A DNA stretch of 64,000 bases from Burkholderiales bacterium (lineage in GTDB: Bacteria > Pseudomonadota > Gammaproteobacteria > Burkholderiales > SG8-41): the NCBI GenBank assembly GCA_046596405.1, contig JBKJMN010000021.1:750-64749 (forward strand), read 5' to 3'. Within the stretch, counting starts at the first letter, position 1. Each line of letters starts with the position of its first letter. Shown here one piece after another: positions 6,820-52,958 of the stretch. Both the position numbers and the translations under genes were made by a program. The notes beneath the pieces were generated by a model. The model ran no database searches and was not told the origin of the DNA. It saw nothing but the letters and a program-made list of their open reading frames with translations.

Positions 6820-6821
6820 CC

Positions 6822-9190: not shown

Positions 9191-9282
9191 ATAGGCCTGT
9201 GTTTTACGAAACTAATCTGCGCAATCGGTTGGGACCGGTGCAAACCCGCGCGTGCACCACAGGGAGCGGCAATTTGAAAACC

Positions 9283-11433: not shown

Positions 11434-11490
11434 GGTGGCGGGGCCGAATTCAAGTGCAAATTACGCGAGTGGCGCAACGTTGCGCGCAAC

Positions 11491-12792
11491 TTAGTGGCGG
11501 ATACCGGGCGAATTGATTTTCTCGCCCTTGTTGAGCGCCGCCAGCGCGAGTTCCAGGTCGCCGTATTCGCGCGCGTCCGGCGGCAACTCGCCGGCGCGCA
11601 CCGACACGTTGCACCATTGAAAGCGCTTACGAACGTCCCAGATATCGCCGCGGCTCGTCCGCCACGTCGGGAAATGCGCGACCGTGCCTTTCGATTCCAC
11701 CAGGTACTGGCCGCGTACCCATTTGTTCACGTGCACACTATGGCAGTCGACACATGCCATGTTGAGCTGGCCGATTTTGCGCTTCATCAACGCCTGCCCG
11801 GATTTGAGCGCTGCGCGTGCGCCGCTGCTCGACAGGTCCGGACTGATCGGCGAGCCGTTAGCGAGATTGTGCAGATAAATGGACAGCCCGATGTTCTCGT
11901 TGCCTTGCATGAGCAGGTCGTCGCCGGTGGTCGCGCGCGCGTGCCGCGTGATGAATTCCTCGACGCCCAGCACGCGCTTCAATCGCGGTTCATAGGTCGG
12001 CATGCGTGCGGCCCACGTTCGCAAAGCGGTTTCCGGCGCGGCATGGCATGACGCACACGATTTGCCGCTGACGCCCGTGCGCTTGAACACCTCTTTGCCC
12101 AGATCGAGCCCGAACGCCGCTGGATTTTCGGTCGGGTCAAGATTGTCACGGCTTTCGACCGGCGCGGGCCGCGTGTTCGGATTTTCATTCTTGTCGGCGA
12201 TCGCGTAGGGTTCCTTGAGCGTCTTCAGGAAAGCGACGATGTCGCGTACTTCGTCGAGGCGGTAGACCTGATACGCACCCCACGGCGGCATGATGCTGGT
12301 GGCATTGTAGATGCGCGGATCGTAAACGTAGTTGAACAGAAATTGATCGTCGCGCGTCGCGCCTATCGTCGACAGGTCGGGCCCGACGTTGCCCGGCTGC
12401 GCGGGCGTTGTCTTGCCCATGACGTGGCAAACGACGCAGCTGCCGCCGCGCGCGCGGTCGTAAGCGAGCGCGCGTCCGCGCTCCGCGTCGCCCACGACTG
12501 GCAACGTAAACCCGGGTGGGGGATGCATCGGCGGCGACAGGTTGGCTTGCGCCAGATTGCTGAATTCGCGCCAATCGGTCTGCGGCCATGTCGAGCCCTG
12601 CGAATCGACTTTGTAACGCTGCCACGGCCTAACCGAGGCAGGCTTTTTGAGTTCGAGCGGCGCTTTCGCGGTGGCGTGGGGCGGTTGCGCAGCGATGCCG
12701 GAACCGCAAATTATCATCATCAAGACCGCGGCGGCGCCAATACCGGGCGCCCGCAGCGGGTATGCGCTGAAGAACGGCTTGCGCGCATGCAA
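11491..12792 (-). CDS. soxXA: Fused SoxX-SoxA tri-heme cytochrome c
   Basis: Single uninterrupted frame. The N-terminal part is SoxX-like (GGSCVVCHVMG...GNVGPDL...MPPWG). The C-terminal part is SoxA-like with two CxxCH sites (CASCH, CVDCH), the FQWCN active-site Cys, and the ending SPGIRH. The start is set at TTG 12792, giving MHARKPFF.. plus a signal-like GIGAAAVLMMIICGSGIAA. The longer ORF to 12972 would overlap soxZ. Start uncertain. Confidence 0.85.
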   Translation of the reverse strand: MHARKPFFSAYPLRAPGIGAAAVLMMIICGSGIAAQPPHATAKAPLELKKPASVRPWQRYKVDSQGSTWPQTDWREFSNLAQANLSPPMHPPPGFTLPVVGDAERGRALAYDRARGGSCVVCHVMGKTTPAQPGNVGPDLSTIGATRDDQFLFNYVYDPRIYNATSIMPPWGAYQVYRLDEVRDIVAFLKTLKEPYAIADKNENPNTRPAPVESRDNLDPTENPAAFGLDLGKEVFKRTGVSGKSCASCHAAPETALRTWAARMPTYEPRLKRVLGVEEFITRHARATTGDDLLMQGNENIGLSIYLHNLANGSPISPDLSSSGARAALKSGQALMKRKIGQLNMACVDCHSVHVNKWVRGQYLVESKGTVAHFPTWRTSRGDIWDVRKRFQWCNVSVRAGELPPDAREYGDLELALAALNKGEKINSPGIRH

Positions 12793-12833
12793 TACCTGCG
12801 GTGCGGCATTTCGCGCGGCGACGGCTGCGCGAC

Positions 12834-13154
12834 TCAAGCGGCGGCCACTGTCGTGTCGATACTGCCTTTGTCGCCACCGGTGTCCGTCCAGTTCACGGTG
12901 ATTTTGTCGCCCGCCTTGGCGCCTTTCACGCGAAACCCTAAAAACGGGTTGCGCGCGACCGCCTGGCTCCATTGGACGTCCAGCACGACTTTACCGTTGT
13001 GAGTCGCGGTTACACTTTGAATGAAATGCACGGGCACCAGTTCCCCTTTTTCATTCTTGCGCTGGCCGGTTTCCATCGGATGGCTCATCAGCACCTTGAC
13101 GTCGGCGGCGTCGCCTTCCATTTTCGCGCGAATTTTCATCGGTTCAGCCATCAA
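12834..13154 (-). CDS. soxZ: Sulfur carrier complex subunit SoxZ
   Basis: 106 aa. MKIRAK..GD.ADVKVLMSHPMETGQRK...HFI is typical of SoxZ. It lies immediately downstream of soxY. Confidence 0.9.
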   Translation of the reverse strand: MMAEPMKIRAKMEGDAADVKVLMSHPMETGQRKNEKGELVPVHFIQSVTATHNGKVVLDVQWSQAVARNPFLGFRVKGAKAGDKITVNWTDTGGDKGSIDTTVAAA

Positions 13155-13191
13155 CGATTCCTCGGGTTGGGGGAGAGCGATCGACGCGCGG

Positions 13192-13662
13192 TCAACCGCC
13201 GCAACCGCCTATCGTGACCTTGACTTCTTTGGTGGCGGTAAAAAATTTACCGTCGGCTTTGACGACCACAACGATGTTCGAGGTCTGGCCCATCTTGACT
13301 TTGGTCGACACGTAGCTCTCGGCGCCATTGGCGAAATCATAACTGCTGTTGAGTGGAAACGGATTCTTGTCGACGACGATGGAAATGCTCTGCGTATTCG
13401 GAATTTTGCTCGTGACCGTGATCGGCACCTGCGCGCCGTTTTCAGCGATATCGGGCGCGGCGAGGATGATGTCCTTGCTGGGCTGGGCGGCTGCGACCCC
13501 CAGTGATTTGAGCGCGTCGGCCGCGGTCTTGGCGTCGAAGCCCGGCTTGTTCCATACCGCAGCGAGCGCGTTGCCTGTCCTGAGCAGACCGGCACCCGCC
13601 GCCACCGCCAGGGGGATGCCGGCGCCTATCGCCTGCAGCAGTTTTCTGCGAAATCGATGCAT
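13192..13662 (-). CDS. soxY: Sulfur carrier protein SoxY
   Basis: ORF trimmed to ATG 13662 (MHRFRRKLLQAIGAG.., Tat-like), preceded by GGAGAAACC. It ends with the diagnostic VKVTIGGCGG swinging-arm motif. Confidence 0.93.
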   Translation of the reverse strand: MHRFRRKLLQAIGAGIPLAVAAGAGLLRTGNALAAVWNKPGFDAKTAADALKSLGVAAAQPSKDIILAAPDIAENGAQVPITVTSKIPNTQSISIVVDKNPFPLNSSYDFANGAESYVSTKVKMGQTSNIVVVVKADGKFFTATKEVKVTIGGCGG

Positions 13663-13829
13663 GGTTTCTCCTTCGGGATGCAGCCTGCCGGATTGTTCCG
13701 GACTGGATAATGCCACGGGGCCTGGCAGCGGAGGCCATGCTAGCCAAGTTTCGCAGCGCTGTCTATTGCGGGGATCGCCGTCGTGTATGGCGCGCGGACG
13801 ATAAGCCGGCGGCGAATCGCGCGTCGTAA

Positions 13830-14315
13830 TTAAACCTCGCGCTTGCGCAACCAATGCCCCGACTTGCCGCCTTTTTTCTCAAGCAGACACAGCTCTTCAA
13901 TATGCATGCCGCGGTCGACGGCTTTGCACATGTCGTAAATCGTCAGCAGGCCGGCCGCGACAGCCGTCAAGGCTTCCATTTCAACGCCAGTGCGCCCGCG
14001 TGTTTCTGCCTGGACCATGCAAGTTACCGCATTGTTTTTGCTATCGACGCTGAATTCGACGCCGATGCGGGTCAGGGCCAACGGGTGGGCGAGCGGGATC
14101 AGGTCGGCCGTGCGTTTCGCGCCCTGAATCGCGGCAATGCGGGCAATTCCCAACACGTCGCCTTTCTTGGCGCCGCCCGCGGTAATCATCGCCAGCGTTG
14201 CGCGTTGCATGACGATGCGCCCGCTCGCGCGGGCGACCCGATGTGTTTCTGCTTTGTCGCCGACATCCACCATATGCGCCTGACCGCGCGTATCGAAATG
14301 CGTCAATTTTTTCAA
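13830..14315 (-). CDS. moaC: Cyclic pyranopterin monophosphate synthase MoaC
   Basis: LTHFD..G.A.MVDV..K..T.R.A, the IPLCHP-like LIPLAHP, and [10 protein letters not shown] motifs. 161 aa. Confidence 0.92.
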
Positions 14316-16009: not shown

Positions 16010-16395
16010 CCAGCCAGGGCGCGAAGGAACAAGGCGTGGGGCCTGAATATCGCCTTGGCTCAGCCGCCGAAGAAGTCCACGAACGTAAACACCATGGGTT
16101 AGCGGGCCCGGCGTTGTTTCCCCGAGCGCGAGTCCGTCGCTCATCTGCGCGGTCAGCCAGCCGAATTGCGCTACGCCGCCTTGATAGATGTAGGGCAGCT
16201 CCGCGTAAGCGCCGCGGGGCGTCAATAGCGTTTCGCGGCGTATCCAGAGGTGTTTTAACCCCCGCGAACCCAATTTAATGCCCCAGCCCGCGAAATCATC
16301 AGAAGCAACGCAAATTTCCGCCTTTATGGTATTGTATTTACTTGCTAATCGGGTTCGCGAACGGCTGCAAGGGACGGCGCCGCAGGGTTAACAAC

Positions 16396-17697
16396 ATGAC
16401 AATCAAAAAGATCGGCAAATACGAAATCATTCGCGAATTGGGCAAAGGCGCGACCAGTATCGTCTACGAGGCCCTGGACCCTTTCGTGAATCGCCACGTC
16501 GCGATGAAAGTCGTGATGCAGGAGGCGTTGGGCGACAAGGAGCACGGCCGCCGTTACCGCAAGCTGTTTGTAACCGAGGCCTCGCTCGCGGGCAAGCTCT
16601 CGCACCCGCATATCGTGAGCATTTACGACGCCGTCGCCGACGACGAGGCGAGCTACATCGTGATGGAATATGTCGACGGCACGACCCTCGAGCAGTACTC
16701 GCGACCCGAGCATCTGCTGTCGATCAACAAAGTGATCGAGATCGTTTTTAAGTGCACCAAGGCGCTCGACTACGCGGCCAAGCATGGCGTCATCCACCGC
16801 GACATCAAGCCGGCCAACATTATGCTGTCCGGCGAGAACGACATCAAGATCACCGACTTCGGCGCGGCGCAGACGACGGCGACCGAAACGACCCAGATCA
16901 CGGGTATCGGCTCGCCGGCATACATGTCGCCGGAGCAGGTCAAGGAAATGGCGCTCACGCATCAGACGGATATTTTCTCGCTTGGCGTCGTGCTGTATCA
17001 GATGCTGACGGGCAAGCTGCCGTTCCAGGCCAATAACAATTACAGCATGATTTATCAGATCATCAATGCAGAGGCCCCGGTGCCCAGTGTAATCCGGCCC
17101 GAAATTCCCCCCCAGCTCGACGCGATCGTGAAACGCGCGCTGCAGAAAAACACGACGGACCGCTATCAATCATGGGAAGAAATTTCGCACGAACTGGTCG
17201 CGGTGTTCGGCAATCTGCAGAAACCGGAAAAGAACATCCCGGACAGCGAAAAATTCAATGCGCTGCGCAAACTCATTTTTTTCAAGAATTTCGCCGATGT
17301 CGAATTGTGGGAGGTTTTGCGGGTGACGAGCTGGGGGAAGTTTGGGCCCGGCCAGGTGCTGATCAAGGAGGGCGATGTCGGCAAGTCGTTCTTTATACTC
17401 GCCGCGGGCGAAGTCAAGATCAGCAAGCAGAGCAAGCTTTTGAACGTGCTGCGCACCGGCGATTGCTTTGGCGAGATGGCCTACCTCGGCAAAAAGCAGT
17501 TCCAGCGCACCGCCAGCGTTATCTCGGCAACCGACATCACGGTGATCGAGATCAAGGCCGAAGCGCTCACGCAGGCCTCCGAGTTGTGCCGCCACAACTT
17601 TAACGGTGCGTTTCTGGAAATCCTCGTCGACCGCCTGTCGATGGCCAATACGCGACTGTCGCAGTTGCTCGCGGACAAGAACATCAGCGTTTTTTAA
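16396..17697 (+). CDS. Hanks-type Ser/Thr protein kinase fused to a C-terminal cyclic-nucleotide-binding domain
   Basis: ATG 16396. Kinase motifs: GKGATSIVY, VAMK, HRDIKPANIM, TDFGAA, SPAYMSPEQ. C-terminal cNMP-binding motifs: FFKNF...LIKEGD.G.SFFILAAGEV...GDCFGEMAYL...RTASV. Confidence 0.85.
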   Translation: MTIKKIGKYEIIRELGKGATSIVYEALDPFVNRHVAMKVVMQEALGDKEHGRRYRKLFVTEASLAGKLSHPHIVSIYDAVADDEASYIVMEYVDGTTLEQYSRPEHLLSINKVIEIVFKCTKALDYAAKHGVIHRDIKPANIMLSGENDIKITDFGAAQTTATETTQITGIGSPAYMSPEQVKEMALTHQTDIFSLGVVLYQMLTGKLPFQANNNYSMIYQIINAEAPVPSVIRPEIPPQLDAIVKRALQKNTTDRYQSWEEISHELVAVFGNLQKPEKNIPDSEKFNALRKLIFFKNFADVELWEVLRVTSWGKFGPGQVLIKEGDVGKSFFILAAGEVKISKQSKLLNVLRTGDCFGEMAYLGKKQFQRTASVISATDITVIEIKAEALTQASELCRHNFNGAFLEILVDRLSMANTRLSQLLADKNISVF

Positions 17698-20476: not shown

Positions 20477-21724
20477 CTACGTCCCGGTCACACCGATGCG
20501 CGCGTAGATTTCGCGCATATGCGCGCGCAGGCGCGGCAGTTGGCGCCACAGCACCCCCGCGCCGACCACGCAACAGGCACCGCCGATGAACAACGTATGC
20601 CCGGCGCCAATTTTATGCGCAAGTGCGCCGGCCGCCAGGCTGCCGAGCGGACTCATGCCGAGAAATGCCACCGTAAAAAAGCTCATTACGCGGCCGCGTT
20701 TTTCATCGGCGACGATGGTCTGTAAAATCATGCTGGTTCCCATGCCGACCAGGATGATGCCGAAGCCGGTCAGCATGATCGCGAACAGCGACAGCCACAG
20801 GAATTTCGATTCGCCGAACACCATCAGGCTCACGCCCGCGAGCAACGCGCCGAACACGATGTGACGAGCGAGCCCGCGCACGTCCTTGCGCGAGGCCAGA
20901 TAAACGAGCCCGCTGGAGCCGCCCAAACCGGCGGCGCCGATCAGAAAGCCAAGCATGCGCGCATCGCCCTGAAAGACTTCGGCGGCGAAGATCGGCATCA
21001 GCGCCTGATACGGGGTCGCCATGAAGCTGAGCAGCGCAACGATCGGCAGCAACAGCCTGATCGGCAGCAGACCTGCCGCATAGAGCACGCCATCCTTGAG
21101 CCCGCGCAGCACGGGCGCGCTCGCGGCCTTGGTCGCGCGCACGTCGATCTGCATCAGCACTACGATCACGATGACCGCGATTTTGCTCAGGCCGTTGGCG
21201 AGAAAGCAGAACGCTTCGCTCGATACTGCGATCAGCAGCCCGGCGATGCTGGGCCCTACCATGCGGCCGGCGTTCTGAACAAATCCGTTCATTGCAATTG
21301 CGCCGGGCAGATCGCTTCGCGAGGGCACGAGTTCGGAGACGAACGACTGGCGCACCGGCGTGTCGGTCGCCATCACGATGCCGAGCAGTACGGCCATGAC
21401 GAGTATGTGCCACACCTGGATCAAGCCCGAATAGGTGAGCAGCGCGAGCGCCATTGCCTGCACGAGCGCGAGCGCCTGGGTCGCTATCAAGAGCTTGCGG
21501 CGGTCGAAGCGATCCGCCCACAAGCCGCCGAGCGGCGCGAATATGAGGATCGGAATCTGGCTTGCGAACGCGGTGACGCCCAACAGGAATGCCGAGCCAG
21601 TCAGACGGTACACGAGCCAGCTCATCGCGACCTGCTGCACCCACGTGCCGAGCAGCGACAGTGATTGACCGAAAAAATACAGCCGGAAATTTCGGTAGCG
21701 GAACGCGCGAAGCGCGTGGATCAT
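20477..21724 (-). CDS. MFS transporter (EntS/MFS_3-like)
   Basis: About 12 predicted TM segments. N-terminal [32 protein letters not shown] and the [11 protein letters not shown] loop. The start codon overlaps the valS stop (ATGA). Confidence 0.85.
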
Positions 21725-24700
21725 CCGAGCCGTTCTAACTGGGCGCGCAGCCTGGCGACGGTGGTTTCGAACTGCACCAGGCGCTGGCGCTCCTGGTCGA
21801 CGACCGCGGCCGGCGCGCGCGCGACGAAGTTGGCGTTGGCGAGCTTGCCCTCGGTTTTGACGATCTCGCCAGCTAGCCGCTCCATCTCCTTGCCGAGCCT
21901 CGCGCGCTCCGCGGCGACGTCGATTTCGATCTTGAGCATCAGCTTATAGTCATCGACGATAGACACCGGCGCCTCCGCGAGCGGCAGTTCGTCGACGATC
22001 GTGATCTCCGACAACCGCGCGAGCGGCGCCAGGTACGGCGCCAGGGCGCCGAGCGTCGCGCGGTTACCCTGCGCGAGCAGCGGCACTTTTTGCTGCGGTC
22101 CCAGGTTCATTTCGCTGCGCAGCGTACGGCAGGCATTGGTCAGTTGTTTCAAAAGCGCGACATGCTGTTCGGCTGGCTCATCGATGCGCCCCGGGTCGGT
22201 CTCCGGATAGGGCTGGAGCATGACGGTCGCGCCGGTTTTTCCCGCCAGCGGCGCGACCCTCTGCCACAATTCTTCGGTGATGAACGGAATGATCGGATGC
22301 GCGAGCCGCAAGGTCGCTTCCAGCACGCGCACGAGCGTGCGGCGCGTGGCGCGCTGCTGCGCCTCGGTGCCGTCCGCGATTTGCACCTTGGCGAGCTCGA
22401 CGTACCAGTCGCAATACTCTTCCCACACGAATTCATAGATCGCGCGCGCCGCGTTGTCGAACCTGTACTCGGCGAACCCTTTGGCGACTTCGGCTTCGGC
22501 ACGCTGCAGCCGGCTTGCGATCCAGCGGTCAACGGGTGAGAATTCGAGCGCCAGCGCTTCATTCAGCCCGACGTCCTTGCCATCGCAGTTCATGAGCACG
22601 AAGCGCGTCGCATTCCACAGCTTGTTGCAGAAATTGCGGTAGCCGTCGCAGCGGCCGAGATCGAAATTAAGCGTGCGCGCGAAAGTCGCGAGCGACGCGA
22701 ATGTAAACCGCAGCGCGTCGACGCCGAACGCGGGAATGCCGTCCGGATAATTCTTGCGCAGGTATTTTTCGATTTTCGCCTTGTGCTCGGCACGCAGCAG
22801 GCCGACCGTCGACTTGGCCAGCAAGGCATCGAGCGTGATGCCGTCGATGAGATCGAGCGGGTCGAGCGTGTTGCCTTTCGACTTCGACATCTTCTGGCCC
22901 TCGGCATCGCGCACGAGGGCGTTGATGTAGACGTGGCGGAACGGCACCTGCCCGGTGAAGTGCAGGGTCATCATGATCATGCGAGCGACCCAGAAGAAAA
23001 TGATGTCAAAGCCAGTGACCAGCACGGACGACGGCAGAAAAGTCTCGAGGTCGCGGGCGGGTTGGCCAGCTGAGTCCGGCCAGCCGAGCGAGGTGAAAGG
23101 CACCAGCGCGGAGGAGAACCAGGTGTCGAGCACGTCGTCGTCGCGCCGCAATGCGCCGGTATAGCCCTTGGCCGCGGCCTGCGCGCGCGCCTCGTCCGCG
23201 CTGCGCGCGACATAAATATTGCCGGCATCGTCATACCAGGCCGGAATCTGATGGCCCCACCACAGCTGGCGCGAAATGCACCAGTCCTGGATGTTCTCCA
23301 GCCACTGGTTATAGGTCGTCGTCCAGTGCTCGGGGAAGAATTTGACGTCGCCGCGGGCCACCGCATCCAGCCCGTTTTTGGCGAGCCCGTCCATTTTCAC
23401 GTACCACTGGTCGGTCAGCATCGGCTCGACGATGACGCCGGTGCGCCCCGAGCGCGGCACGCGCAGCTTGTATGGTTTTTCCGCGACCAGCAGGTCCTGC
23501 GCCGTCAAATCCGCCAGCACGCGCTGGCGTGCTTCGAAGCGATCGAGGCCGCGGTACGCTTCCGGTGCGTTGTCGTTAAGCGCGGCGGTCAGGGTTAGGA
23601 TATTGATGGGCTCCAGCTTGTGGCGCTGGCCAATTTGATAGTCGTTGAAGTCGTGCGCAGGCGTGATCTTCACGCAGCCGGTGCCGAACTCGCGATCGAC
23701 GTAGCTGTCGGCGATGACCGGTATGGTGCGTCCGGTCAGCGGCAGCTGGACCTGCTTGCCGATCAGGTGCTGGTACCGCCAGTCGTCGGGATTGACGGCG
23801 ACGGCAACGTCACCGAGCATCGTCTCCGGCCGCGTGGTCGCAACGACCAGCGAACCGCTGCCGTCGGCAAGCGGGTACTTGATCTCCCATATTTTGCCGT
23901 CTTCCTCTTCGGAGTCGACTTCCAGATCGGACACCGCGGTGCCGAGCTTGGGATCCCAGTTGACGAGGCGCTTGCCGCGGTATATCAGCCCTTCTTCGTG
24001 CAGCCGCACGAACACTTCGACGACGGCGCGCGACATCTTTTCGTCCATCGTAAAGTAACCGCTGCTCTTGCCTTCGGTGTCGGCATAGCCCCAGTTGGCG
24101 GAGGTGCCGAGCCGCCGCATCTGGCGCGTAATCGTCGAGCCCGATTCCTGCTTCCATTCCCACACGCGCTTGATGAAAGCTTCGCGGCCTAAGTCGTGGC
24201 GCGACTTGCCCTCGGCTTCGAGCTGGCGCTCGACGACGATCTGCGTCGCTATGCCGGCGTGGTCGGTGCCCACCACCCAGTTGGTGTTGTGCCCGCGCAT
24301 GCGATGGTAGCGAATCAGCGCGTCCATCAGCGTCTGCTGGAACGCATGCCCCATGTGCAAGGTGCCCGTTACATTCGGCGGCGGCAACTGTATGCAATAC
24401 GGGGGCTGCGAAGTGTCGCCGGAGTGCGCGAAATAGCCGCGGCTCTCCCATTCGGGATACCAGTGGTTTTCGATCGCATGCGGCTCGAAGCTCTTGGCGA
24501 GTTCCATCGGGGCGGGGGGCGGCGCGGAAAAGTCGCGCATTATAGCGGACGCTTCAGCGCTTTCCGGCGGTGGAACGGCGGGCGCGGGGGCCGGGCTATT
24601 CTCGGTCAAGCGCAATTGTTGCAACTGATTTTGCAGGGTTTCCTCGATCGATGCGCGCACCATCGCGTTGATGTTCGATTTGAGCTCGGCGTTGATTTTG

Positions 24701-25086
24701 TGCAGCGCCTGGTCGAGCGCGCCCGCAACTTCGGGCATAAACCGGTTTTGCAGCGCGGCAGCGATTTGCTCATCCAGCCCTTGCTTCAATCTTTGATACA
24801 CGCCGTGCTCGAGGTTTTGCGCTTGCACGCGCGAAATTATTTCACCGCGCTGCGCGGGCGGTTCGTGTTCCACCCGGGTTGCTGGCGCGTCGGTGGCTAC
24901 GATATCCGTCAGTGTCGGGATGGCGGCGGCGTCGAGATCGCCGGCGATGGATTCGACGAGCGTCGGAATCGCGCCGGAATCTGCCGCCGGCGTGCTGGCG
25001 GCGCGGTGCCGGTTGAGCAGCGCATCGGCGCGGCTCAAAACGTCGTCGGTCGCCGGATTATCGCTGCTGTCGCCCGAATTGCTCAT
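21721..25086 (-). CDS. valS: Valine--tRNA ligase with a 193-aa N-terminal extension
   Basis: The canonical ValRS core runs from MELAKSFEP (ATG 24507) and includes [22 protein letters not shown] and the C-terminal coiled coil. The same frame stays open upstream to ATG 25086, which is 14 nt after the holC stop. Confidence 0.95.
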
Positions 25087-29386: not shown

Positions 29387-29812
29387 TCACCCTTCAACCT
29401 TGATAAGTCGCGTGCCGGCTAAGCGGTCGTGCAGAAATTGACCGTCGCGATCTGCGAGGGCCCACCAGAATCCGCCGCCGGCTAAAGCCGTGCCGGCCAG
29501 CGCATACAGATAACGCAGCGCGGCCTGGCGTACGGACGGCGGGCCGCCAGCGCGTGCGGCCACGCGTATGCGCCACGTCTTCATCGGCAACGTTTGGCCG
29601 CCATGCGTCCAGCAGTAGATAAAATAGGCCGCGCCGACCGCCAGCAGATAAACCTGAAAAAACGCACGCGCGAGCGTCGCGGGGAGCAGTAGTTCGAAGG
29701 CAAGGAACAACCAGCCGGCCGCAAATACGATTGCCGCGAGCAGCAGCACTTCATAGCACACGCTGCCGAGCCGTCGCGCAAGACTGGCGGCGGGCGCCGG
29801 AAGGTCCTTCAA
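29387..29812 (-). CDS. RDD-family membrane protein
   Basis: The C-terminal part of ORF 29387-30166 has TM segments and LADRDGQFLHDRLAGTRL (RDD motif). The upstream part of that ORF overlaps the DUF3106 gene, so the start is placed at TTG 29812. Start uncertain. Confidence 0.65.
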   Translation of the reverse strand: MKDLPAPAASLARRLGSVCYEVLLLAAIVFAAGWLFLAFELLLPATLARAFFQVYLLAVGAAYFIYCWTHGGQTLPMKTWRIRVAARAGGPPSVRQAALRYLYALAGTALAGGGFWWALADRDGQFLHDRLAGTRLIKVEG

Positions 29813-29829
29813 AGGGATGGTGCGGCGGG

Positions 29830-30279
29830 TTACTGCGGTGCCGGCGCGGGGATATCGCCTGCGGATTCCGGCTTGGCGGCGAGCGACTGCTGGTATTCCT
29901 GCCACTGCGCCTTGACCTGTTTGCGTTTTTCGGGCGGCAGCTTCTTGATGGTCTTGTAATTTTCCCGCGCCACCCGGCGCTGCTCTGGCGAGAGTGTCGC
30001 CCATTCCTTCATTTGCGCCTGGAGCCGTTGTTGTTGCTCCGGTTTCATTTTCGGATAGGCGTTGGCGACCTTGACCCATTTCGCGCGGCGCAATGTGTCG
30101 AGCTCCTTCCAGTCGTCCTTGAGCGGTTCGAGCACGCCTTGCTGCGAAGCCGTCAATTCGGACCAATCGGGCTTGGCCGGCTTGGGCTGAACGGCTGATT
30201 TGGGCTGGAGAGGGGCGGCGGCGCTGACCGGGGCGACGAGACTCAAGCCCAGAATTATTGCGACGAGCGCTTTAACCAT
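29830..30279 (-). CDS. DUF3106-family secreted protein
   Basis: Signal peptide. Repeated W.(E/K)L...Q(Q/R) helices (WSELTASQQ, WKELDTLRR, WATLSPEQRR) typical of DUF3106. Position in the sigma/DUF3619/DUF3106/RDD cluster. Confidence 0.65.
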   Translation of the reverse strand: MVKALVAIILGLSLVAPVSAAAPLQPKSAVQPKPAKPDWSELTASQQGVLEPLKDDWKELDTLRRAKWVKVANAYPKMKPEQQQRLQAQMKEWATLSPEQRRVARENYKTIKKLPPEKRKQVKAQWQEYQQSLAAKPESAGDIPAPAPQ

Positions 30280-30638
30280 GCTTCGAAATTGCTGTCGAGA
30301 TAGGCGTTGATGGGTAAGTCGTCGGTCAGAAGGCTGGCGTCGATATCAGCGATGTCATTGGCTTGCACAATGAACTGCCAGTAAGTGGCGCCGACCAGAC
30401 TCAGCACAAGCAGGCCCAAGGCAAGGACATTGCGGCCGTTGAAGTAACGATTGTGACTGACGCGAAACGCGATGTCTCCCGCCCAAGCCAGCCCGAACAT
30501 CGGTTGCGGCGCTTCGCGGTATCGGTCGAGCGCCGCGTGACGCGCCGACTGCAATTGATAGGCCGTTCCCTGCCTGAGCGTGCCGAGCCCGGCATTGAGG
30601 TGGTGAACGATTTTGCCTGCCACTTCCTGTTCGTTCAT
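30255..30638 (-). CDS. DUF3619-family membrane protein (possible anti-sigma partner)
   Basis: 127 aa with a single TM segment (VLALGLLVLSLVGATYW). It lies directly downstream of, and overlaps, the ECF sigma gene. Confidence 0.6.
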   Translation of the reverse strand: MNEQEVAGKIVHHLNAGLGTLRQGTAYQLQSARHAALDRYREAPQPMFGLAWAGDIAFRVSHNRYFNGRNVLALGLLVLSLVGATYWQFIVQANDIADIDASLLTDDLPINAYLDSNFEAWLKRSSQ

Positions 30639-31201
30639 AGCGAAACTCCCTTATCTTTCAGCAGGTCTGCCAAAGCATGCGTCGCCCGGGAGCAGTGAGT
30701 TTTCACGCTACCTTCCGAGCAACCCATGACTGCGGCGGCTTCTGCGACATCCAATTCCTCCCAATAACGCAGCAGGAAGGCTTGGCGTTGACGGTGCGGC
30801 AACTTTTGGAGTGCTTTTTCAATGATTTCAAGCGTTTGAGCCTGTTGTAGTTGATCCGATGGTGCGCCCTGCGGATTGGAGTTGGATTGCACCTCCAAAG
30901 TTTCCAGCGGATCGTGGTCGTCGCCATCGTCGGCGCCGCCGAGCGACGAGATCTGCGTGGTCCACAGTGTGCGCACTTTCTGGCGCCGGAAGTAGTCGCG
31001 CAGTGTGTTCTGCAGGATGCGCTGGAACAACATCGGCAACTCGGTGATCGGGCGCGACGCGTATTTTTCCGACAGCTTCATCATCGCGTCCTGCACGGCA
31101 TCAAGGGCGACCTGCTCGTCGCGTGCCGCGAAAAACGCCTGCTTGAATGCGCGCCGTTCGACTGCGGCTAGAAAATCGGCAAGTTCCTTGCGGGTGGCCA
31201 G
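30635..31201 (-). CDS. ECF-type RNA polymerase sigma factor (probable CTG start)
   Basis: Region 2 (FLAAVERRAFKQAFFAARDEQVALDAVQDAMMKL) and region 4 (LDVAEAAAVMGCSEGSVKTHCSRA). The first canonical start (GTG 31096) would remove conserved region 2 sequence. No ATG, GTG or TTG lies between it and the in-frame TAA at 31250-31252, so CTG 31201 (..ATRKELADFL) is proposed. Confidence 0.8.
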   Translation of the reverse strand: MATRKELADFLAAVERRAFKQAFFAARDEQVALDAVQDAMMKLSEKYASRPITELPMLFQRILQNTLRDYFRRQKVRTLWTTQISSLGGADDGDDHDPLETLEVQSNSNPQGAPSDQLQQAQTLEIIEKALQKLPHRQRQAFLLRYWEELDVAEAAAVMGCSEGSVKTHCSRATHALADLLKDKGVSL

Positions 31202-31521
31202 TGGAGTCTGCCTCTCGTGATGCGCCCGGTGGTGCTGGGGCTTAACTTGTTATGTTGATATTCGCATCTGACATGCAAGTCTATCTATGCGAACCCCCAC
31301 GTGCCCGCTCTTGACGGCGTGGACGCGAGTGTCCGACCGTGCGCGCTGAAATACCCGAAGCATCTTATCAAAACGCCCTGCCACTGCAAGTTGGGACCGG
31401 CCCTCGCTCGCTGAAGTCAGCGGTATCATACTGTTTAATCAGATATTTGGCTTGACCAATTAGCAGCGTAACGGTATCGTTCTCGGTTCTGTGTTTTTCA
31501 GGGCTTCCACAAGGTTCAGCT

Positions 31522-33237
31522 ATGGAATTGAACGGCGCCGAGATTGTCGTGCGGTGTTTGCAGGAAGAAGGCGTCGATTACGTGTTCGGTTATCCGGGCG
31601 GCGCTGTTCTGCACCTGTACGACGAATTATTCAAGCAAAGCAAGGTTAAGCACATCTTGGTCCGGCATGAACAGGGTGCTGTCCATGCGGCTGACGGCTA
31701 TTCGCGCTCGACCGAAAAAATCGGCGTCGCACTTGTTACGTCCGGTCCCGGCGTCACCAACGCAATCACGGGCATCGCGACCGCATACATGGATTCCATC
31801 CCGCTGGTGATCATCACCGGACAGGTGCCGACCCACGCGATTGGCCAGGACGCTTTTCAGGAGTGCGATACCGTGGGCATTACGCGCCCGTGCGTGAAGC
31901 ACAACTTCCTGATCAAAGACGTGAAAGACATCGCGGCGACGATGAAGAAAGCTTTTTATATCGCGGGCACCGGCCGGCCGGGCCCGGTCGTCGTCGACAT
32001 TCCGAAGGACATCACGCACCCTGCAAGCAAAGCGGAATTCGACTATCCGAAGTCGGTCAGCATGCGTTCATACAACCCGGTCGTCAAAGGGCATGGGGGC
32101 CAGATCAAGAAAGCGCTGCAATTATTGCTGCGCGCCAAGCGGCCGATGATCTACACGGGCGGGGGAGTCGTCCTGGGCAATGCTGCGCCGGAGCTTGCCC
32201 ACCTTGTGCGGCTCCTGGGTTTTCCGTGCACCAACACGTTGATGGGGCTTGGCGGCTATCCCGCGAGCGACCGCCAGTTCGTCGGCATGCTCGGCATGCA
32301 CGGCACATACGAAGCGAACATGGCGATGCAGCACTGTGATGTGCTGCTCGCGATCGGCGCCCGGTTCGACGACCGCGTCATCGGCAACCCCAAGCATTTC
32401 TTCGAAGAGCCGCGCACCATCATTCACATCGACGTCGATCCGTCGTCGATCTCCAAGCGCGTGAAGGTCGACGTGCCGATCGTCGGCAGCGTGCGGCCGG
32501 TGCTGCAGGAACTCACCAAGCAATTGCAGGCGTCGAAGGACAAGCCCGACGCGATCGCGCTCAAGGCATGGTGGAAGCAGGTTGACGTGTGGCGCGCCCG
32601 CGACTGCCTCAAATATACGCAGACCACCAAGATTATCAAGCCGCAGTTCGTGATCCAGAAGCTGCACGAGCTCACCAAAGGCGATGCGTTCGTGACCTCC
32701 GACGTCGGCCAGCACCAGATGTGGGCCGCGCAATTCTATAAATTCGACAAGCCGCGGCGTTGGATCAATTCAGGCGGGCTCGGCACGATGGGTTTCGGTC
32801 TGCCCGCGGCCATGGGTGTGCGGCTCGCGAACCCGAAAGCGACCGTCGCCTGCATCACCGGTGAAGGCAGCATCCAGATGTGCATCCAGGAGTTGTCGAC
32901 CTGCAAGCAGTATCACCTGCCGATCAAGATCATCAACCTGAACAACCGTTATCTCGGCATGGTGCGCCAGTGGCAGCAGGTCGATTATTCGAGCCGCTAT
33001 TCCGAATCGTACATGGATGCGCTGCCGGATTTCGTCAAGCTCGCGGAAGCGTATGGCCACGTCGGCATGCTGATCAACAAGCCCGCCGATGTCGAGCCGG
33101 CGCTGAAAGAAGCGCTCAAACTGAAGGATCGCCTGGTATTCATGGACTTCATCACCGATCAGACCGAGAACGTGTGGCCGATGGTGAAGGCAGGCAAAGG
33201 CCTGTCCGAGATGCTGCTCGGCTCGGAAGACCTTTAG
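31522..33237 (+). CDS. ilvI: Acetolactate synthase, large (catalytic) subunit
   Basis: ThDP-enzyme motifs. N-terminal MELNGAEIVVRCLQEEGVDYVFGYPGGAVL. GGLGTMGFGLPAAMG. 571 aa. Confidence 0.95.
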   Translation: MELNGAEIVVRCLQEEGVDYVFGYPGGAVLHLYDELFKQSKVKHILVRHEQGAVHAADGYSRSTEKIGVALVTSGPGVTNAITGIATAYMDSIPLVIITGQVPTHAIGQDAFQECDTVGITRPCVKHNFLIKDVKDIAATMKKAFYIAGTGRPGPVVVDIPKDITHPASKAEFDYPKSVSMRSYNPVVKGHGGQIKKALQLLLRAKRPMIYTGGGVVLGNAAPELAHLVRLLGFPCTNTLMGLGGYPASDRQFVGMLGMHGTYEANMAMQHCDVLLAIGARFDDRVIGNPKHFFEEPRTIIHIDVDPSSISKRVKVDVPIVGSVRPVLQELTKQLQASKDKPDAIALKAWWKQVDVWRARDCLKYTQTTKIIKPQFVIQKLHELTKGDAFVTSDVGQHQMWAAQFYKFDKPRRWINSGGLGTMGFGLPAAMGVRLANPKATVACITGEGSIQMCIQELSTCKQYHLPIKIINLNNRYLGMVRQWQQVDYSSRYSESYMDALPDFVKLAEAYGHVGMLINKPADVEPALKEALKLKDRLVFMDFITDQTENVWPMVKAGKGLSEMLLGSEDL

Positions 33238-33249
33238 GAGAGCGCGGCG

Positions 33250-33741
33250 ATGCGACATATCATTTCCGTGCTGCTTGAGAACGAATCCGGGGCGCTTTCG
33301 CGCGTGGTCGGCCTCTTTTCCGCGCGCGGCTATAACATCGAAACGCTGACCGTGGCGCCGACCGAAGACCTCACGCTGTCGCGCATGACCATCGTGACGA
33401 CGGGCTCGGACGAAGTGATCGAGCAGATCAACAAGCAACTGAACAAACTGATCGAGGTGGTGAAAGTCATCGACCTGTCCGACGGCGATCACATCGAACG
33501 CGAACTGATGCTCGTCAAAGTGCGGGCGGTCGGCAAGGACCGCGAAGAAATGAAACGCATGGCGGACATCTTCCGCGGTCGCATCATCGACGTCACCGAC
33601 AAGGATTACACGATCGAGCTTACCGGCACGGGCTCCAAGCTCGACGCGTTCTTGAGCGCGATCGATCGCACCGCGATCATGGAGACTGTGCGTACCGGCG
33701 CTTCCGGCATCGGTCGCGGCGACCGGATCTTACGAATCTAG
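33250..33741 (+). CDS. ilvH: Acetolactate synthase, small (regulatory) subunit
   Basis: [33 protein letters not shown]-type ACT domain. 163 aa. Confidence 0.95.
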   Translation: [163 protein letters not shown]

Positions 33742-33744
33742 TGA

Positions 33745-34827
<1,083 letters not shown>

Positions 34828-34912
34828 GACTGCGGATCGAGATTGAGGATCGAGAGAAACCCCCGCCGCGGGTTCGCTCTTCCTCAATCCCTAGGCCTCC
34901 ACTCTCAAGCTC

Positions 34913-35083
34913 ATGAGCAATAACTATCCTCATCCGATCATCGCGCGCGAAGGGTGGCCGTACATGGTCGCCAGTTTTTCCGTCGCGCTCGCGGTTACGT
35001 TTGCCGCCCGGTGGCCCAGGGCCGCGGTGAGCGATAGCGTGGCGGCGAGCGCGACGGTAATCGCGGAGCTGGGGTCGCATTGA
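34913..35083 (+). pseudogene. psd: Phosphatidylserine decarboxylase remnant (56 codons; N- and C-termini retained, catalytic core missing)
   Basis: Translation: MSNNYPHPIIAREGWPYMVASFSVALAVTFAARWP|RAAVSDSVAASATVIAELGSH*. The start matches the betaproteobacterial Psd N-terminus (M.NYPHPIIAREGWPF). The end resembles its C-terminus (..RAKVS.G..V.A..TILAEL..). TGATG overlap with pssA. Full-length homologues are about 210 aa. Homologue sequences are from my recollection. Confidence 0.6.
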
Positions 35084-35913
35084 TGTACGGCCGCAAAGAT
35101 AAGTGGCTCGGCGAAAGCGGCAGGATCCGCCGTCGCGGGATTTACTGGCTGCCCAATGTATTCACCACGGTCGCGTTGTTCGCGGGTTTTTTTTCGATCG
35201 TGCAGGCGATGAGCGGACGTTTCGACCAGTCCGCGCTCGCCATCTTCGTGGCTCTGGTATTTGACGGCCTCGACGGCCGGGTGGCGCGCTTCACGCATAC
35301 GCAAAGCGCGTTCGGCGCCGAATACGACAGCCTGTCCGACATGGTGTCGTTCGGGGTCGCGCCGGCGCTCGTGATTTACGTGTGGGCGCTCAAGGATTTT
35401 TCCAATGCGCAGAACATCCCGATGCTCGGCGCGTGGGTGACGGCCAAGCTCGGCTGGATTGCCGCCTTCATTTATTGCGCTTGCGCGGCGTTGCGGCTGG
35501 CGCGCTTCAACACCCAGCTCGAAGTCGCCGACAAGCGTTTTTTCCAGGGCCTGCCGAGCCCGGCCGCGGCTTGCGTCGTCGCCGGGCTCGTGTGGGCGAT
35601 GGACGCGCATCAGATCGGCGGCGCCGACGTGAAATGGCTGGCGTGGGTGCTGACCATGTTCGCGGGCCTGACGATGGTCACCAACTTAAAGTACTACAGC
35701 GGCAAGGACATCAATCCGCGCAAGAGCGTGTCGTTTCCCGTCGTGGTGGCGATCGCGTTGGCGGTCGTGGCGCTCGTCGCCGTATCGAGCACGCTGCCTG
35801 AAATGATGTTTATCCTGTTCGTTGGCTATGCGCTGTCGGGCTACGTGCTCGCGCTGCTGGATTTCGCGCGCCGCAAAGGCACCGCCCGCCCGCCCGCCGC
35901 GCCGGCGCCCTGA
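35083..35913 (+). CDS. pssA: CDP-diacylglycerol--serine O-phosphatidyltransferase
   Basis: CDP-alcohol phosphatidyltransferase motif DGLDGRVAR........GAEYDSLSD. Multi-TM. 276 aa. Confidence 0.9.
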   Translation: MYGRKDKWLGESGRIRRRGIYWLPNVFTTVALFAGFFSIVQAMSGRFDQSALAIFVALVFDGLDGRVARFTHTQSAFGAEYDSLSDMVSFGVAPALVIYVWALKDFSNAQNIPMLGAWVTAKLGWIAAFIYCACAALRLARFNTQLEVADKRFFQGLPSPAAACVVAGLVWAMDAHQIGGADVKWLAWVLTMFAGLTMVTNLKYYSGKDINPRKSVSFPVVVAIALAVVALVAVSSTLPEMMFILFVGYALSGYVLALLDFARRKGTARPPAAPAP

Positions 35914-35952
35914 GGCTTGCTTCCGGCCCCAAAACCCTTTATATTTTCAACC

Positions 35953-36036
35953 ATGAGTTCCATGCACCAGGCCACGACGTTGTTCCCCACTGCCAGCCCC
36001 CTGCTGGCAGGCCTGCTGCTGCGCGTCGCGCGCTAA
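35953..36036 (+). promoter_or_regulatory. Candidate leucine-rich leader peptide ORF upstream of leuA
   Basis: The 27-codon ORF MSSMHQATTLFPTASPLLAGLLLRVAR* has 5 Leu within 7 residues. It lies 109 nt upstream of leuA ATG. Several overlapping GC-rich inverted repeats are present, but I could not define a clean U-tract terminator. Confidence 0.35.
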
Positions 36037-36144
36037 ATACTCCTCTTACATTCTGATTTTTGTGGTGCGGCCGGGTGATGGAAACCCGGATTGATGACGA
36101 TATTCGCGCGCGCACTTCGTGACGCAGCCGAACTGGAGAAGCTC

Positions 36145-37686
36145 ATGAGCAAGGAAAAACTGATCATATTCGATACCACCATGCGCGACGGCGAGCAAAG
36201 CCCGGGCGCCTCGATGACGAAGGACGAGAAGCTGCGCATCGCGCGCCAGCTCGAGCGGATGCATGTCGACATCATCGAAGCGGGCTTTCCGGCGGCGAGC
36301 GACGGCGATTTCGAGTCGGTCAAGGCGGTGGCCGCGGCCGTGCGCGAAAGCACCGTATGCGGGCTGGCACGCGCCAATGAAAAGGACGTGCGCCGGTGCG
36401 GCGAAGCCGTCAAAGGCGCGAAATCGCCGCGCGTGCATACGTTTATCGCGACGAGCCCGATCCACATGGAAAAGAAGCTGCGCATGGAGCCGTCACAGGT
36501 GATCGAGCAGGCGGTGCGCGCGGTCCAGTGGGCACGTGACTACACGCACGACGTCGAATTTTCTCCAGAAGACGCCGGGCGCTCCGACCTGGACTTTCTG
36601 TGCCGCATCCTCGAACAGGTTATTGCTGCGGGCGCGACGACGATCAACGTGCCCGACACGGTCGGTTATACGCTGCCCGAGCACTTCGGCAGCCTCATCC
36701 GGAAGCTGCGCGAGCGCATCCCCAATTCGGACAAGGCCGTGTGGTCCGTTCACTGCCACAACGATCTCGGATTGGCGGTCGCCAATTCGTTGTCGGCGGT
36801 GTTGAACGGCGCGCGTCAGGTGGAATGCACGATCAACGGATTGGGCGAGCGCGCCGGTAACGCCTCGCTTGAAGAGATCGTCATGGCCGTGCGCACGCGC
36901 CAGGACGTGTTCCCGTGCGACACCGGCATCGATGCGACCCAGATCGTGCCCGCGTCCAAGCTCGTGTCCGGCATCACCGGTTATCCGGTGCAGCCCAATA
37001 AAGCGATCGTCGGCGCCAACGCATTCGCGCACGAATCCGGCATTCATCAGGACGGCGTGCTCAAGCATCGCGAGACCTATGAAATCATGAGCGCCGAAAG
37101 CGTTGGCTGGACGACCAATCGACTGACGCTGGGAAAATTGTCAGGACGCAACGCGTTCAAGTCGCGCCTGCAGGAAATCGGCATCGAGCTTGCGTCCGAG
37201 GAGGCGTTCAACGCTGCGTTCACGCGCTTCAAAACGCTCGCGGACAAAAAGCGCGAAATATTCGACGAGGATCTGCAGGCGTTGATTACCGAGGAAAGTC
37301 TGGAGCACGTCGCGAACGAGCACTACCACCTGGTATCGCTCACCGCGCACTCGGAGACCGGCGCATTGCCGTTCGCAAAAATCGTTTTGTCGGAGAATGG
37401 CAAAGAGCGGCCCGCGCAATCGAGCGGGAGCGGCCCGGTCGATGCGTCGTTCAAGGCAATCGAAAGCCTCGTGAACAGCGGCGCGGAGTTGTTGTTGTAT
37501 TCGGTCAACAACATCACCAGCGGCACGGACTCGCAGGGTGAAGTCACGGTCCGGCTGTCGAAGACGGGTCGCATCGTCAACGGCCAGGGTGCGGACACCG
37601 ATATCGTCGTTGCTTCTGCGAAAGCGTACCTCAACGCGCTGAACAAGCTGCATTCGAAGCTCGAGCGACTGAATCCGCAGGTGTGA
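36145..37686 (+). CDS. leuA: 2-isopropylmalate synthase
   Basis: ATG 36145 ([21 protein letters not shown]). HxH motif [13 protein letters not shown]-terminal LeuA dimerisation/regulatory domain. Confidence 0.95.
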
Positions 37687-37760
37687 CCGGTAGCGCGCCG
37701 CGCCAGCCGCACCAAGAAAAAGGGCGCCCGCAGGCGCCTTTTTTTAAATCCTCTCAACGT

Positions 37761-38591
37761 TCAGCCATCGAGCTTGACGCGCGAGGCCGTGGCGATCTTG
37801 AGTTGGTTTTTTATTTCCTTCACGCGCGGCAGCGCGGCGACGACTTCCGACGCATGCACCGGTTCATTGCCGCGGTCGACCATGCCGGCGAGGGTCACTA
37901 CGCCCTGGTCCGCGGTGATCGTGATGTGCATTTTTTCGGTTCGCGGGTCGGCGCGCAACGCGGCGCGCACATGGGTCTCGAGCGCGAGGTTGGCGAGCAT
38001 TTGCAGCGACTGCGCGGACTCCTGGAACTGCGCATTTTTGACCAGCGCCATCACTTGATCCACGCATTCGTCGATCGAGACGCGTTCGGTATTGAGCACG
38101 AGGTCGTACTGCTCGGGATCCTGCCAGTTGACGCCGAAATGCCGGCGCGTGATTGCGCCGTGCGCCTCTTCGGAGAGCTTGATCTCGTTGGTAATGAACG
38201 CCTCGTCGTCGGAACTGAGCCGCGCCATCATGCGCTGCACGCGCACTTGCATCGGCGCGCATACGCGCACGCAAATCACGTGCTGGATGGGACGCAACAG
38301 ATGCGCCGAGCCCCAGCCGCGAATGACCGACACGCCGTCGGCTTCCGCGAGCGCCATGGTTTCGTCGGCGGTGTAGATCGACAGGCTGGTCTTGTCAGTC
38401 GTCAGGCGCTCCCAGATATTGGCCTTGCCGTCGAGAAAACGCACGACGTGGCTTTTGCGCAAACGCATCTTGTTCGCGAGCTGATCGATGATTTCGTGGT
38501 GCACGACCGGCTTGCCCAGGCGTGTGGAGAGGGAGCTCGCAACGTCCTTGCCGAGCGAGCCCATTTCACGGGTCATGGCGATGAGCGGCAT
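37761..38591 (-). CDS. Cytidylate-kinase-like family protein with C-terminal BON domain
   Basis: ORF 37761-39233 trimmed to ATG 38591 (MPLIAMTREMGSLGKDVA..), preceded by GGAGA. The C-terminus HITITADQGVVTLAGMVD...VKEIKNQLKI is BON-like. The upstream part of the long ORF overlaps the DUF2069 gene. Confidence 0.6.
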   Translation of the reverse strand: MPLIAMTREMGSLGKDVASSLSTRLGKPVVHHEIIDQLANKMRLRKSHVVRFLDGKANIWERLTTDKTSLSIYTADETMALAEADGVSVIRGWGSAHLLRPIQHVICVRVCAPMQVRVQRMMARLSSDDEAFITNEIKLSEEAHGAITRRHFGVNWQDPEQYDLVLNTERVSIDECVDQVMALVKNAQFQESAQSLQMLANLALETHVRAALRADPRTEKMHITITADQGVVTLAGMVDRGNEPVHASEVVAALPRVKEIKNQLKIATASRVKLDG

Positions 38592-38677
38592 GGCTGATCT
38601 CCGGAAGATATGCAAAGCGGGGTAAACAGGATAGCACCGCGGCGCCCGTTGCGGGACTAAATCCGTGCTGTGCCGCG

Positions 38678-39024
38678 TCAAATACGCCGCCTTGCGGCGC
38701 GCACGAAAAGGATGCTGGCCACGAAGCAAATCAGCGCGAGCGCGATTTGCGCGCCTGCCAGATACGCCGACATGCCGCGCTCCGACCACGCGCGGACGGC
38801 GCCTTCGGCGAAATAGGCGAGTACCAGCATCGACGTCCATTGATAGGTATAAATTTTGCCGCGCAGTATGCCGAAAAGAGGCGCCAGCAACGGGAGGACC
38901 TTGAGAGCCAGCATGGACCCGCCGGGCCGCAGCGGCGCCAGAACCAGCTCCCACGCGAGCCCCAGAAAAATCAGCGCAATGAGACTGATCACCGTTACAT
39001 AGTACGCTGCGGGATCCGTGCGCA

Positions 39025-39028
<4 letters not shown>
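38678..39028 (-). CDS. DUF2069-family membrane protein
   Basis: 116 aa with 4 TM segments. LKVLPLL.PLFGILRGK.YTYQW and YF.EG.VRAWS motifs. Confidence 0.65.
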
Positions 39029-41612
<2,584 letters not shown>

Positions 41613-41626
<14 letters not shown>

Positions 41627-42236
41627 CGGACGCGGCGGGCGAGACGCCGTCAGCGGGGTACTTCCAGTTGGAAATCCACGCGCGCACCACCATGTTGGGA
41701 TACTCGGCCTGGCCGAGGCTGCCGTTGTAACGGCCGAGCGCGCGGAAATAGTCGCCGCGCTCGCGGTCGAGATAATGGCGCAAAATCCAGCAGCCGTAGC
41801 GCAGGTTGGTGCGCAGGTTGAATAAATTGTCCTGCGTGTTTTCCGACAGCTTTACCCAGAAAGGCATCACCTGCATGTAACCGCGCGCGCCCGCAGTCGA
41901 TACCGCATGCTTGCGGAAATTGCTTTCGATCTGGATCAGTCCAAGCACGAGTTGCGGGTCGAGTCCGGCGCGCTTCGCTTCATAGTGCACCGTCACCAGG
42001 AAATCTTCGCGCGTGTGCCGGTCGGGGATGCGGCGCGCGAGTTTTTTCGACATTGCGTCGAGCCAGGTGCGCGCTTCCTCGACAGTGTCGAACGCGAGGA
42101 ACGGCACCGCCTGGTCGCTCACCCGCTTGTGCAGGCCGGCGCGCACGCTGGCCGTGAGATCCTCATACTTTTGCGCGCCACCCCACGCCGGCCCGGCCAG
42201 CATGATGCAGCAGGTGGCGACGATCAGCCCGCGCAT
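41613..42236 (-). CDS. Lytic transglycosylase (SLT domain) protein
   Basis: Signal peptide. LIQIESNF....S.AGA.GYMQVMP catalytic Glu-Ser context and the YNGS motif. Confidence 0.8.

Positions 42237-52881: not shown

Positions 52882-52958
<77 letters not shown>

Follow-up and report, generated by a model that had tools for sequence, protein, structure and literature searches.

A probable psd pseudogene remnant at the ilvC-pssA junction in a strain of an uncultured Burkholderiales species

The formation of phosphatidylethanolamine (PE) in model bacteria has only one known route, the decarboxylation of phosphatidylserine (PS) by the enzyme Psd, and all known Psd enzymes are pyruvoyl-dependent (PMC8027125). 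The locus described here, from one strain of an uncultured soil/freshwater Burkholderiales species, carries between ilvC and pssA an open reading frame (ORF) of only 56 codons, and it raises the question of what this ORF is, how it arose and how the strain would make PE. The ORF is very probably a strain-specific pseudogene remnant of a short-type psd (~215 aa), the gene that is normally found between ilvC and pssA.

The ilvC-pssA junction and its missing codons

The ORF is located at 34913..35083 on the + strand of the window (the whole stretch of DNA that was analysed, 64,000 nucleotides) and is formed by 56 codons and a TGA, its product being MSNNYPHPIIAREGWPYMVASFSVALAVTFAARWPRAAVSDSVAASATVIAELGSH. 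The TGA (35081-35083) and the ATG of pssA (35083-35085) share the A at 35083 in the sequence TGATG (35081-35085), and a TTG at 35080, just 5' of this ATG, is an alternative start. The re-analysis gave the same translation and coordinates as the initial annotation, which had also described the TGATG overlap with pssA and placed ilvC and pssA about 250 bp apart; 255 bp were measured from the ilvC stop at 34827 to the pssA start. A scan from 33700 to 36200 found no sigma-70-like promoter. The features of the locus are given below, L081 being one of two conspecific metagenome contigs that serve as reference.

31522-33237, + strand: ilvI, acetolactate synthase large subunit (ORF, synteny with the L081 gene calls; omega 0.019)
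33250-33741, + strand: ilvH, acetolactate synthase small subunit (ORF, synteny with L081; omega 0.107)
33811..34827, + strand: ilvC, ketol-acid reductoisomerase (Pfam KARI_N and KARI_C)
34828..34912, + strand: ilvC-psd intergenic spacer (alignment; equal in length in the conspecific contigs)
34913..35083, + strand: probable psd pseudogene remnant (gapless alignment to L081 psd codons 1-34 and 196-217)
34913..35014, + strand: retained 5' part, codons 1-34, with the conserved NYPHPIIAREGWP motif and the beginning of the N-terminal hydrophobic helix
35015..35015, + strand: deletion junction, TGG/CCC (blastn against L081)
35015..35080, + strand: retained 3' part, codons 196-217, Psd profile positions 195-213
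35083..35913, + strand: pssA, CDP-diacylglycerol--serine O-phosphatidyltransferase (Pfam PF01066, TIGR00473)
36145..37686, + strand: leuA, 2-isopropylmalate synthase (Pfam HMGL-like, HCS_D2 and LeuA_dimer)

The rest of the window contains housekeeping genes, among them valS, proS, obg, proB, nrdAB, pepA, holC, lptF and moaC; ARAGORN and Rfam reveal a single RNA gene in the window, a tRNA-Pro(CGG) at 52882-52958 (+). A possible pilin modification cluster (184-9690, +) has two large TPR proteins, a methyltransferase of FkbM type and a glycosyltransferase-2-like protein encoded upstream of tandem type IV pilin genes, two in number (8660-9115 and 9184-9690, +). A protein with a 5'-nucleotidase C-terminal domain, a domain common to SoxB, is encoded at 9721-11433, and a SoxA/TsdA-type dihaem cytochrome c and a SoxY-domain protein at 11491-13854 (-), adjoining moaC; these Sox-like genes (9721-13854) hint at a capacity for thiosulfate or sulfur oxidation. 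A 451-aa protein with a eukaryotic-type Ser/Thr protein kinase domain and a C-terminal cyclic-nucleotide-binding domain is encoded at 16342-17697 (+). In the valS ORF (21721-25086, -), of 1121 aa, the synthetase domain begins only at residue 209, and a cytidylate-kinase-like/BON ORF (37761-39233, -) has 490 aa in comparison to the 276 aa called in L081; in both cases the long N-terminus is probably a GC-rich over-extension of the ORF and not a real extension.

Both ends of the 56-aa product are similar to Psd. Residues 1-34 are matched by the NCBIfam psd equivalog NF003680 with an E-value of 2.5e-10 and 40 bits (cut-off 262), the match spanning only positions 1-34 of the 217 of the profile, and no match to Pfam PS_Dcarbxylase (PF02666) is found in the 56 aa even at E <= 1. 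A dedicated Psd profile was built from 52 full Psd sequences extracted from related loci, 80 of which were fetched by searching GTDB species representatives with PssA. In this profile, residues 3-35 of the product correspond to positions 2-34 (36.6 bits) and residues 35-53 to positions 195-213, positions 35-194 being missing; the C-terminal 23 aa alone score 8.5 bits, a value reached by 0 of 20,000 shuffles. Residues 16-33 come from the hydrophobic N-terminal segment of Psd, while the retained 3' part encodes the final 22 residues of the small alpha chain and does not include the pyruvoyl-forming Ser.

The intact form of the gene is found in the same species. In fact, a PssA protein search led to two ENA metagenome contigs of separate samples, L081 (49 kb) and L082 (24.7 kb), each encoding a protein with 98% identity to the query. 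Synteny between these contigs and the window extends from the genes for an ECF sigma factor and DUF3619 through an SLT-domain gene (at least 12.3 kb), and the contigs can be assigned to the species of the window organism because of their 96.4-96.9% nucleotide identity to it across 12.3 kb (blastn). Both carry a psd of full 217 codons, different from each other by 1 base, with a TGA overlapping the pssA start. In the blastn alignment L081 1-5453 corresponds to window 29561-35015 and L081 5936-12834 to window 35015-41910, so that the sole large difference is a gap of 483 bp (161 codons, 35-195) at 35015, the remaining 12.3 kb being collinear with five small gaps only. The C at the junction (35015) is assignable to either flank, which gives a microhomology of 1 nt. 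The 56 codons align to L081 psd codons 1-34 and 196-217 without gaps, and the autocleavage site FG/SRVD (residues 182-187 of the conspecific Psd, with the Ser at 184 of 217) is within the segment that is missing. No direct repeats of at least 15 nt occur in the intact psd; a repeat-mediated deletion was also considered and rejected, the best direct repeat being of 14 nt (12/14 matching) with a spacing of 493 bp, out of register with the 483 bp lost.

A single in-frame deletion of 483 bp would have joined codon 34 to codon 196, taking the whole decarboxylase body together with the FG/S autocleavage site and leaving a product that cannot be a decarboxylase, since the site that yields the pyruvoyl cofactor is deleted. 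The similarities to Psd at both termini, which had been put forward in the initial annotation, hold in the alignments with NF003680, with the dedicated profile and with the conspecific genes, and the loss of the catalytic core with preservation of the termini and of the stop/start overlap with pssA can be followed base by base against L081 and L082. The deletion had been estimated at roughly 150 codons: it is in frame as proposed, and its measured size is 161 codons. The G-S site had been expected in the middle of the protein, whereas this short type of Psd has it close to the C-terminus, at residues 183-184 of 217.

The family concerned is the short-type Psd (PF02666; NF003680/PRK05305), which has ~213-217 aa and is found in Burkholderia, Ralstonia, Nitrosomonas and Aromatoleum. 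The remnant shares with it the position between ilvC and pssA, the start region, the stop/start junction and the collinear first 34 and last 22 codons; in contrast, codons 35-195 are absent, and with them the Gly-Ser autocleavage site and all of the beta chain core; the remnant has no full-length domain and scores below the curated cut-offs of the family, and its codons evolve neutrally (omega 1.3) and not under purifying selection. It can therefore be described as derived from the family and no longer a functional member: a psd relic at the orthologous position, both ends of which resemble Psd in the same order and the same reading frame.

Substitutions in the retained codons and the state of pssA

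The retained codons differ from those of L081 by 12 nonsynonymous and 3 synonymous substitutions (dN 0.10, dS 0.077), which corresponds to an omega of ~1.3, a value based on 15 substitutions only. The differences are distributed over both parts, with 6 nucleotide differences in the 5' part (5 nonsynonymous) and 9 in the 3' part (7 nonsynonymous). The dS is at the level of the flanking genes ilvI, ilvH, ilvC, pssA and leuA, which show dS 0.067-0.12, dN 0.002-0.013 and omega 0.02-0.15 in the same comparison (Fisher test, remnant versus flanks, p = 8e-7); in particular, IlvC is 99.4% identical to its L081 counterpart (omega 0.027) and LeuA 99.0% (omega 0.071). The homologous 56 codons of intact psd genes of the genus have omega values of 0.12-0.27, under which at least 12 nonsynonymous changes out of 15 have a binomial p of 0.0013-0.007, while the count is compatible with omega = 1. 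Polarisation with outgroups identifies at least six replacements derived in the window at positions invariant among the relatives (A19V, A23S, G33R, K36R, V37A and G40S). Divergence also peaks locally at the remnant, whose 171 nt contain 15 mismatches; the regional mean is 5.8, and only 2.5% of sliding windows reach such a level. These alignments show the retained codons taking substitutions at the neutral rate since the loss of function, with neighbours under strong purifying selection, and the remnant looks like a sequence that has been drifting neutrally during much of the period after the divergence of the strains.

The downstream gene is in a different state. PssA is 97.5% identical to that of L081 at an omega of 0.146, it contains the motif DGx2DGx2ARx8Gx3Dx3D of CDP-alcohol phosphatidyltransferases, and only two amino acid changes (L27V and F203L) are derived in the window. 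Since PssA is intact and constrained, the strain appears still to make PS.

The start of pssA is arranged differently in the conspecific contigs, where it is located one codon upstream (L081 5998-6006 and L082 2651-2659; ATGAGG, MRY...) with respect to window 35078-35086 (MY...); two adjacent substitutions (CAATGAGG versus CATTGATG) account for this difference and for the type of overlap, ATGA in the former and TGATG in the latter. The window ATG (35083) corresponds to the ancestral 'MY...' start of outgroup PssA proteins. A compensatory role of the two substitutions was considered and discarded, the outgroups indicating that the window ATG is ancestral and that the start of L081/L082 is shifted.

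Junctions without psd, possible translational coupling and the supply of phosphatidylethanolamine

The order ilvC-psd-pssA-leuA had been regarded as conserved in Betaproteobacteria. Among the 75 related loci from GTDB species representatives that show both ilvC and pssA, the ilvC-psd-pssA order is indeed common (about two thirds) but not universal, with psd absent between the two genes in 24, where the gap measures 105-465 bp and no psd is present within ~6 kb. These junctions belong to Accumulibacter, Thauera, Azonexus, Sulfuritalea, Nitrosospira, Niveibacterium, some Gallionellaceae, Sulfuriferula and Rhodocyclaceae, and are listed here by locus number:

psd-less loci, part 1: L010, L013, L015, L034, L038, L044-L046, L051, L054, L058, L059
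psd-less loci, part 2: L061-L067, L070, L072, L074, L075, L079

Presence and absence of psd alternate inside Sulfuriferula, Gallionellaceae, Nitrosomonadaceae and Rhodocyclaceae, and parsimony on a neighbour-joining IlvC+PssA tree (71 taxa, approximate topology) places psd at the root with ~10 changes. Two of the psd-less gaps still contain decayed terminal traces of the gene, each found as the best of 144 frame translations and each with a score not reached in 5000 shuffles: in L066 (~599-895, in the ilvC-pssA gap) the trace MNNYSHPVISHE... corresponds to profile positions 1-29 and opens a 47-codon ORF with its stop 3 codons before pssA, and in L034 (~5795-6045) the trace LPQTPTVSSAIGDKVSAMTILL is a psd C-terminus corresponding to profile positions 189-210. 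From the 24 of 75 loci without psd and the two that bear traces, the loss of psd by deletion at this slot is recurrent, and the window represents its earliest stage. The window shares with the psd-less junctions the adjacency of ilvC and pssA and a gap within 105-465 bp, and the terminal traces of L066 and L034 suggest a similar route of loss; in contrast, the losses in the psd-less genera are old and genus-wide with remnants that are nearly erased, whereas the window allele is young (conspecific dS ~0.08), so far found in one strain and fully alignable. As a separate observation, one related locus, L057 (JBDSJK010000159.1), differs from all the others in having no ilvH/ilvC within 6 kb upstream of pssA, its synteny at pssA being broken or rearranged.

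The reading that competes best with simple decay is that selection acts on the translation of the remnant and not on its peptide, the upstream ORF being retained only to deliver ribosomes to pssA; this is possible but rather doubtful. No stop interrupts the frame between the original psd start and the TGA that overlaps the pssA ATG, and purine-rich stretches 5' of this ATG, GGAG at 35065-35068 and GGGG at 35071-35074, are in the 3' part of the remnant, so that the two ORFs have the stop/start overlap and the Shine-Dalgarno-like sequence inside the upstream ORF of a coupled gene pair. The psd stop abuts or overlaps pssA in relatives as well (ATGA overlap in L081 and a gap of 2-5 nt in L001, L002 and L090), the 47-codon ORF of L066, with its decayed psd N-terminus, ends similarly close to pssA, and the neutral evolution of the peptide fits such a role. 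However, one third of random deletions are in frame, 56 GC-rich codons with 15 substitutions usually remain open by chance, and pssA can be expressed without a coupling ORF since other psd-less gaps are as short as 105 bp and stops separate the psd trace from pssA in L034.

Decay of psd brings back the question of PE. A second psd was searched for in the 64-kb window, which is ~1-2% of a typical genome, and none was found by Pfam on 44 ORFs or by phmmer on all ORFs. Compensation by a second psd gene elsewhere in the genome is judged fairly likely. Several Betaproteobacteria are listed as having long Psd proteins of the E. coli type. When an Aromatoleum Psd was used as query for a relocated short-type psd in Thauera, the best 120 matches were from Aromatoleum, Azoarcus and Rhodocyclaceae only, and a literature search for redundant psd in Betaproteobacteria found nothing. 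A tblastn search with Psd against plasmids returned alphaproteobacterial and archaeal plasmids and a few records above 2 Mb, some of them chromosome-like. The PLSDB records NZ_CP119142.1, NZ_CP119140.1 and NZ_CP115947.1 exceed 2 Mb and have one short-type psd each; the large psd records comprise two of Neisseria gonorrhoeae (~2.17 Mb, as large as a complete chromosome) and one of Ralstonia solanacearum (a 2.3-Mb replicon). The loss of the local gene would then be tolerated through PS decarboxylation by another gene elsewhere in the genome, which presumably would also supply this activity in the psd-less betaproteobacterial lineages.

A strain without any PS decarboxylase, in which PS or other lipids replace PE or PE is formed by a route that does not involve Psd, is very unlikely. 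The psd-free 64 kb would agree with it, and divalent cations are able to rescue temperature-sensitive psd mutants of E. coli (PMC8027125). Against it, the examined DNA is only a small part of a typical genome, the purifying selection on pssA and its intact motif suggest that PS is needed as an intermediate, and about one third of related loci are psd-less yet come from free-living groups. Such psd-less free-living Betaproteobacteria are expected to contain PE. A related and slightly less probable case is that the genome has no other Psd and has kept PssA, with PS as an end-product lipid or with an unrecognised enzyme outside PF02666 that converts PS to PE; if such a non-PF02666 route did exist, the psd-less betaproteobacterial loci would mark lineages that use it.

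Reality and reach of the deletion allele and its meaning

The initial annotation had left room for a collapse of the assembly at this position, and more generally the true genome could have a full psd from which 483 bp were lost by the assembler or through a chimeric or PCR-deleted template. The deletion allele is in fact known from one assembly only, psd is full-length in the conspecific contigs, and the metagenome contig scans described below gave no match to the junction. An artefact, however, would have kept the retained codons as conserved as those of a working gene, in contrast to the omega of 1.3 beside flanks at 0.02-0.15 and the at least six derived changes at otherwise invariant residues; moreover, the intact gene has no repeat of at least 15 nt, the microhomology at the junction is just 1 nt, and the remaining 12.3 kb are collinear apart from five small gaps, with neighbour genes of full length. 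Since the substitutions follow a neutral pattern and no repeats of at least 15 nt occur in the intact gene, the deletion is taken with high confidence to be genuine and not made by the assembly, and an artefact is highly improbable. Least credible of all is that the fusion peptide is a new small membrane protein, made of the N-terminal hydrophobic helix and a C-terminal tail: the start codon, upstream spacer and frame are all retained and residues 16-33 are from a hydrophobic segment, but the omega of ~1.3 is indistinguishable from neutrality, Psd-invariant residues are altered, an exact look-up in the assemblies collection gave no matching short protein on record, and the JGI metagenome contig scans gave no second strain that carries it.

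The deletion as genuine decay was found in one strain. All of the 17 close relatives, namely the two conspecific contigs and 15 contigs whose PssA is 90-92% identical (L081-L082 and L084-L098), carry psd, which is full-length (213-217 aa) in 16 of them (2 conspecific and 14 congeneric) and has at least 161 codons, running to the contig end, in the short contig L096. The JGI metagenome contigs gave 0 matches to the deletion junction both in a degenerate back-translation scan and in a near-exact DNA scan with ancestral states allowed, and the exact remnant, IlvC and PssA proteins of the window have no record in the public assemblies collection. These comparisons show, as far as assembled sequences go, exactly where the lesion starts and ends and that conspecific and congeneric contigs do not have it; the lesion is so far specific to one strain. 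A further contig, L083 (ENA ERZ25039488 contig_17633, 345 kb; PssA 91% identical), has a psd called at 151 aa, an ilvI at 415 aa and a leuA at 304 aa; its psd was considered as a second pseudogene and rejected, as ilvI and leuA are also called short and a long-read indel error is the probable reason.

With an intact orthologue in close relatives, a disabling 483-bp lesion and relaxed selection, the remnant has the three usual characters of bacterial pseudogenes formed by internal deletion. It differs from ordinary ones in that its lesion is in frame and leaves a translatable ORF overlapping the start of the next gene, and in that the gene lost encodes the sole PE route of model bacteria (PMC8027125) while its partner pssA is kept. 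A lesion that is in frame and spares both the 5' start region and the 3' end, with the ribosome-binding region of pssA and the overlap, would be the one that least disturbs pssA, and this low disturbance of pssA expression may explain the survival of the allele.

The event is ordinary gene decay and a new instance of a familiar type of event. Genome annotations should mark the 56-aa ORF as a pseudogene instead of listing it as a small protein. The locus offers a clean and datable snapshot of the first stage of a loss that belongs with ~10 changes at the same position across Betaproteobacteria, and it helps in the choice of genomes in which a compensating decarboxylase can be searched for. PE is the major membrane lipid of model bacteria, and a free-living strain with a psd that has been destroyed for some time beside a pssA that is under selection points to redundancy or to an alternative step in PE synthesis in this group.
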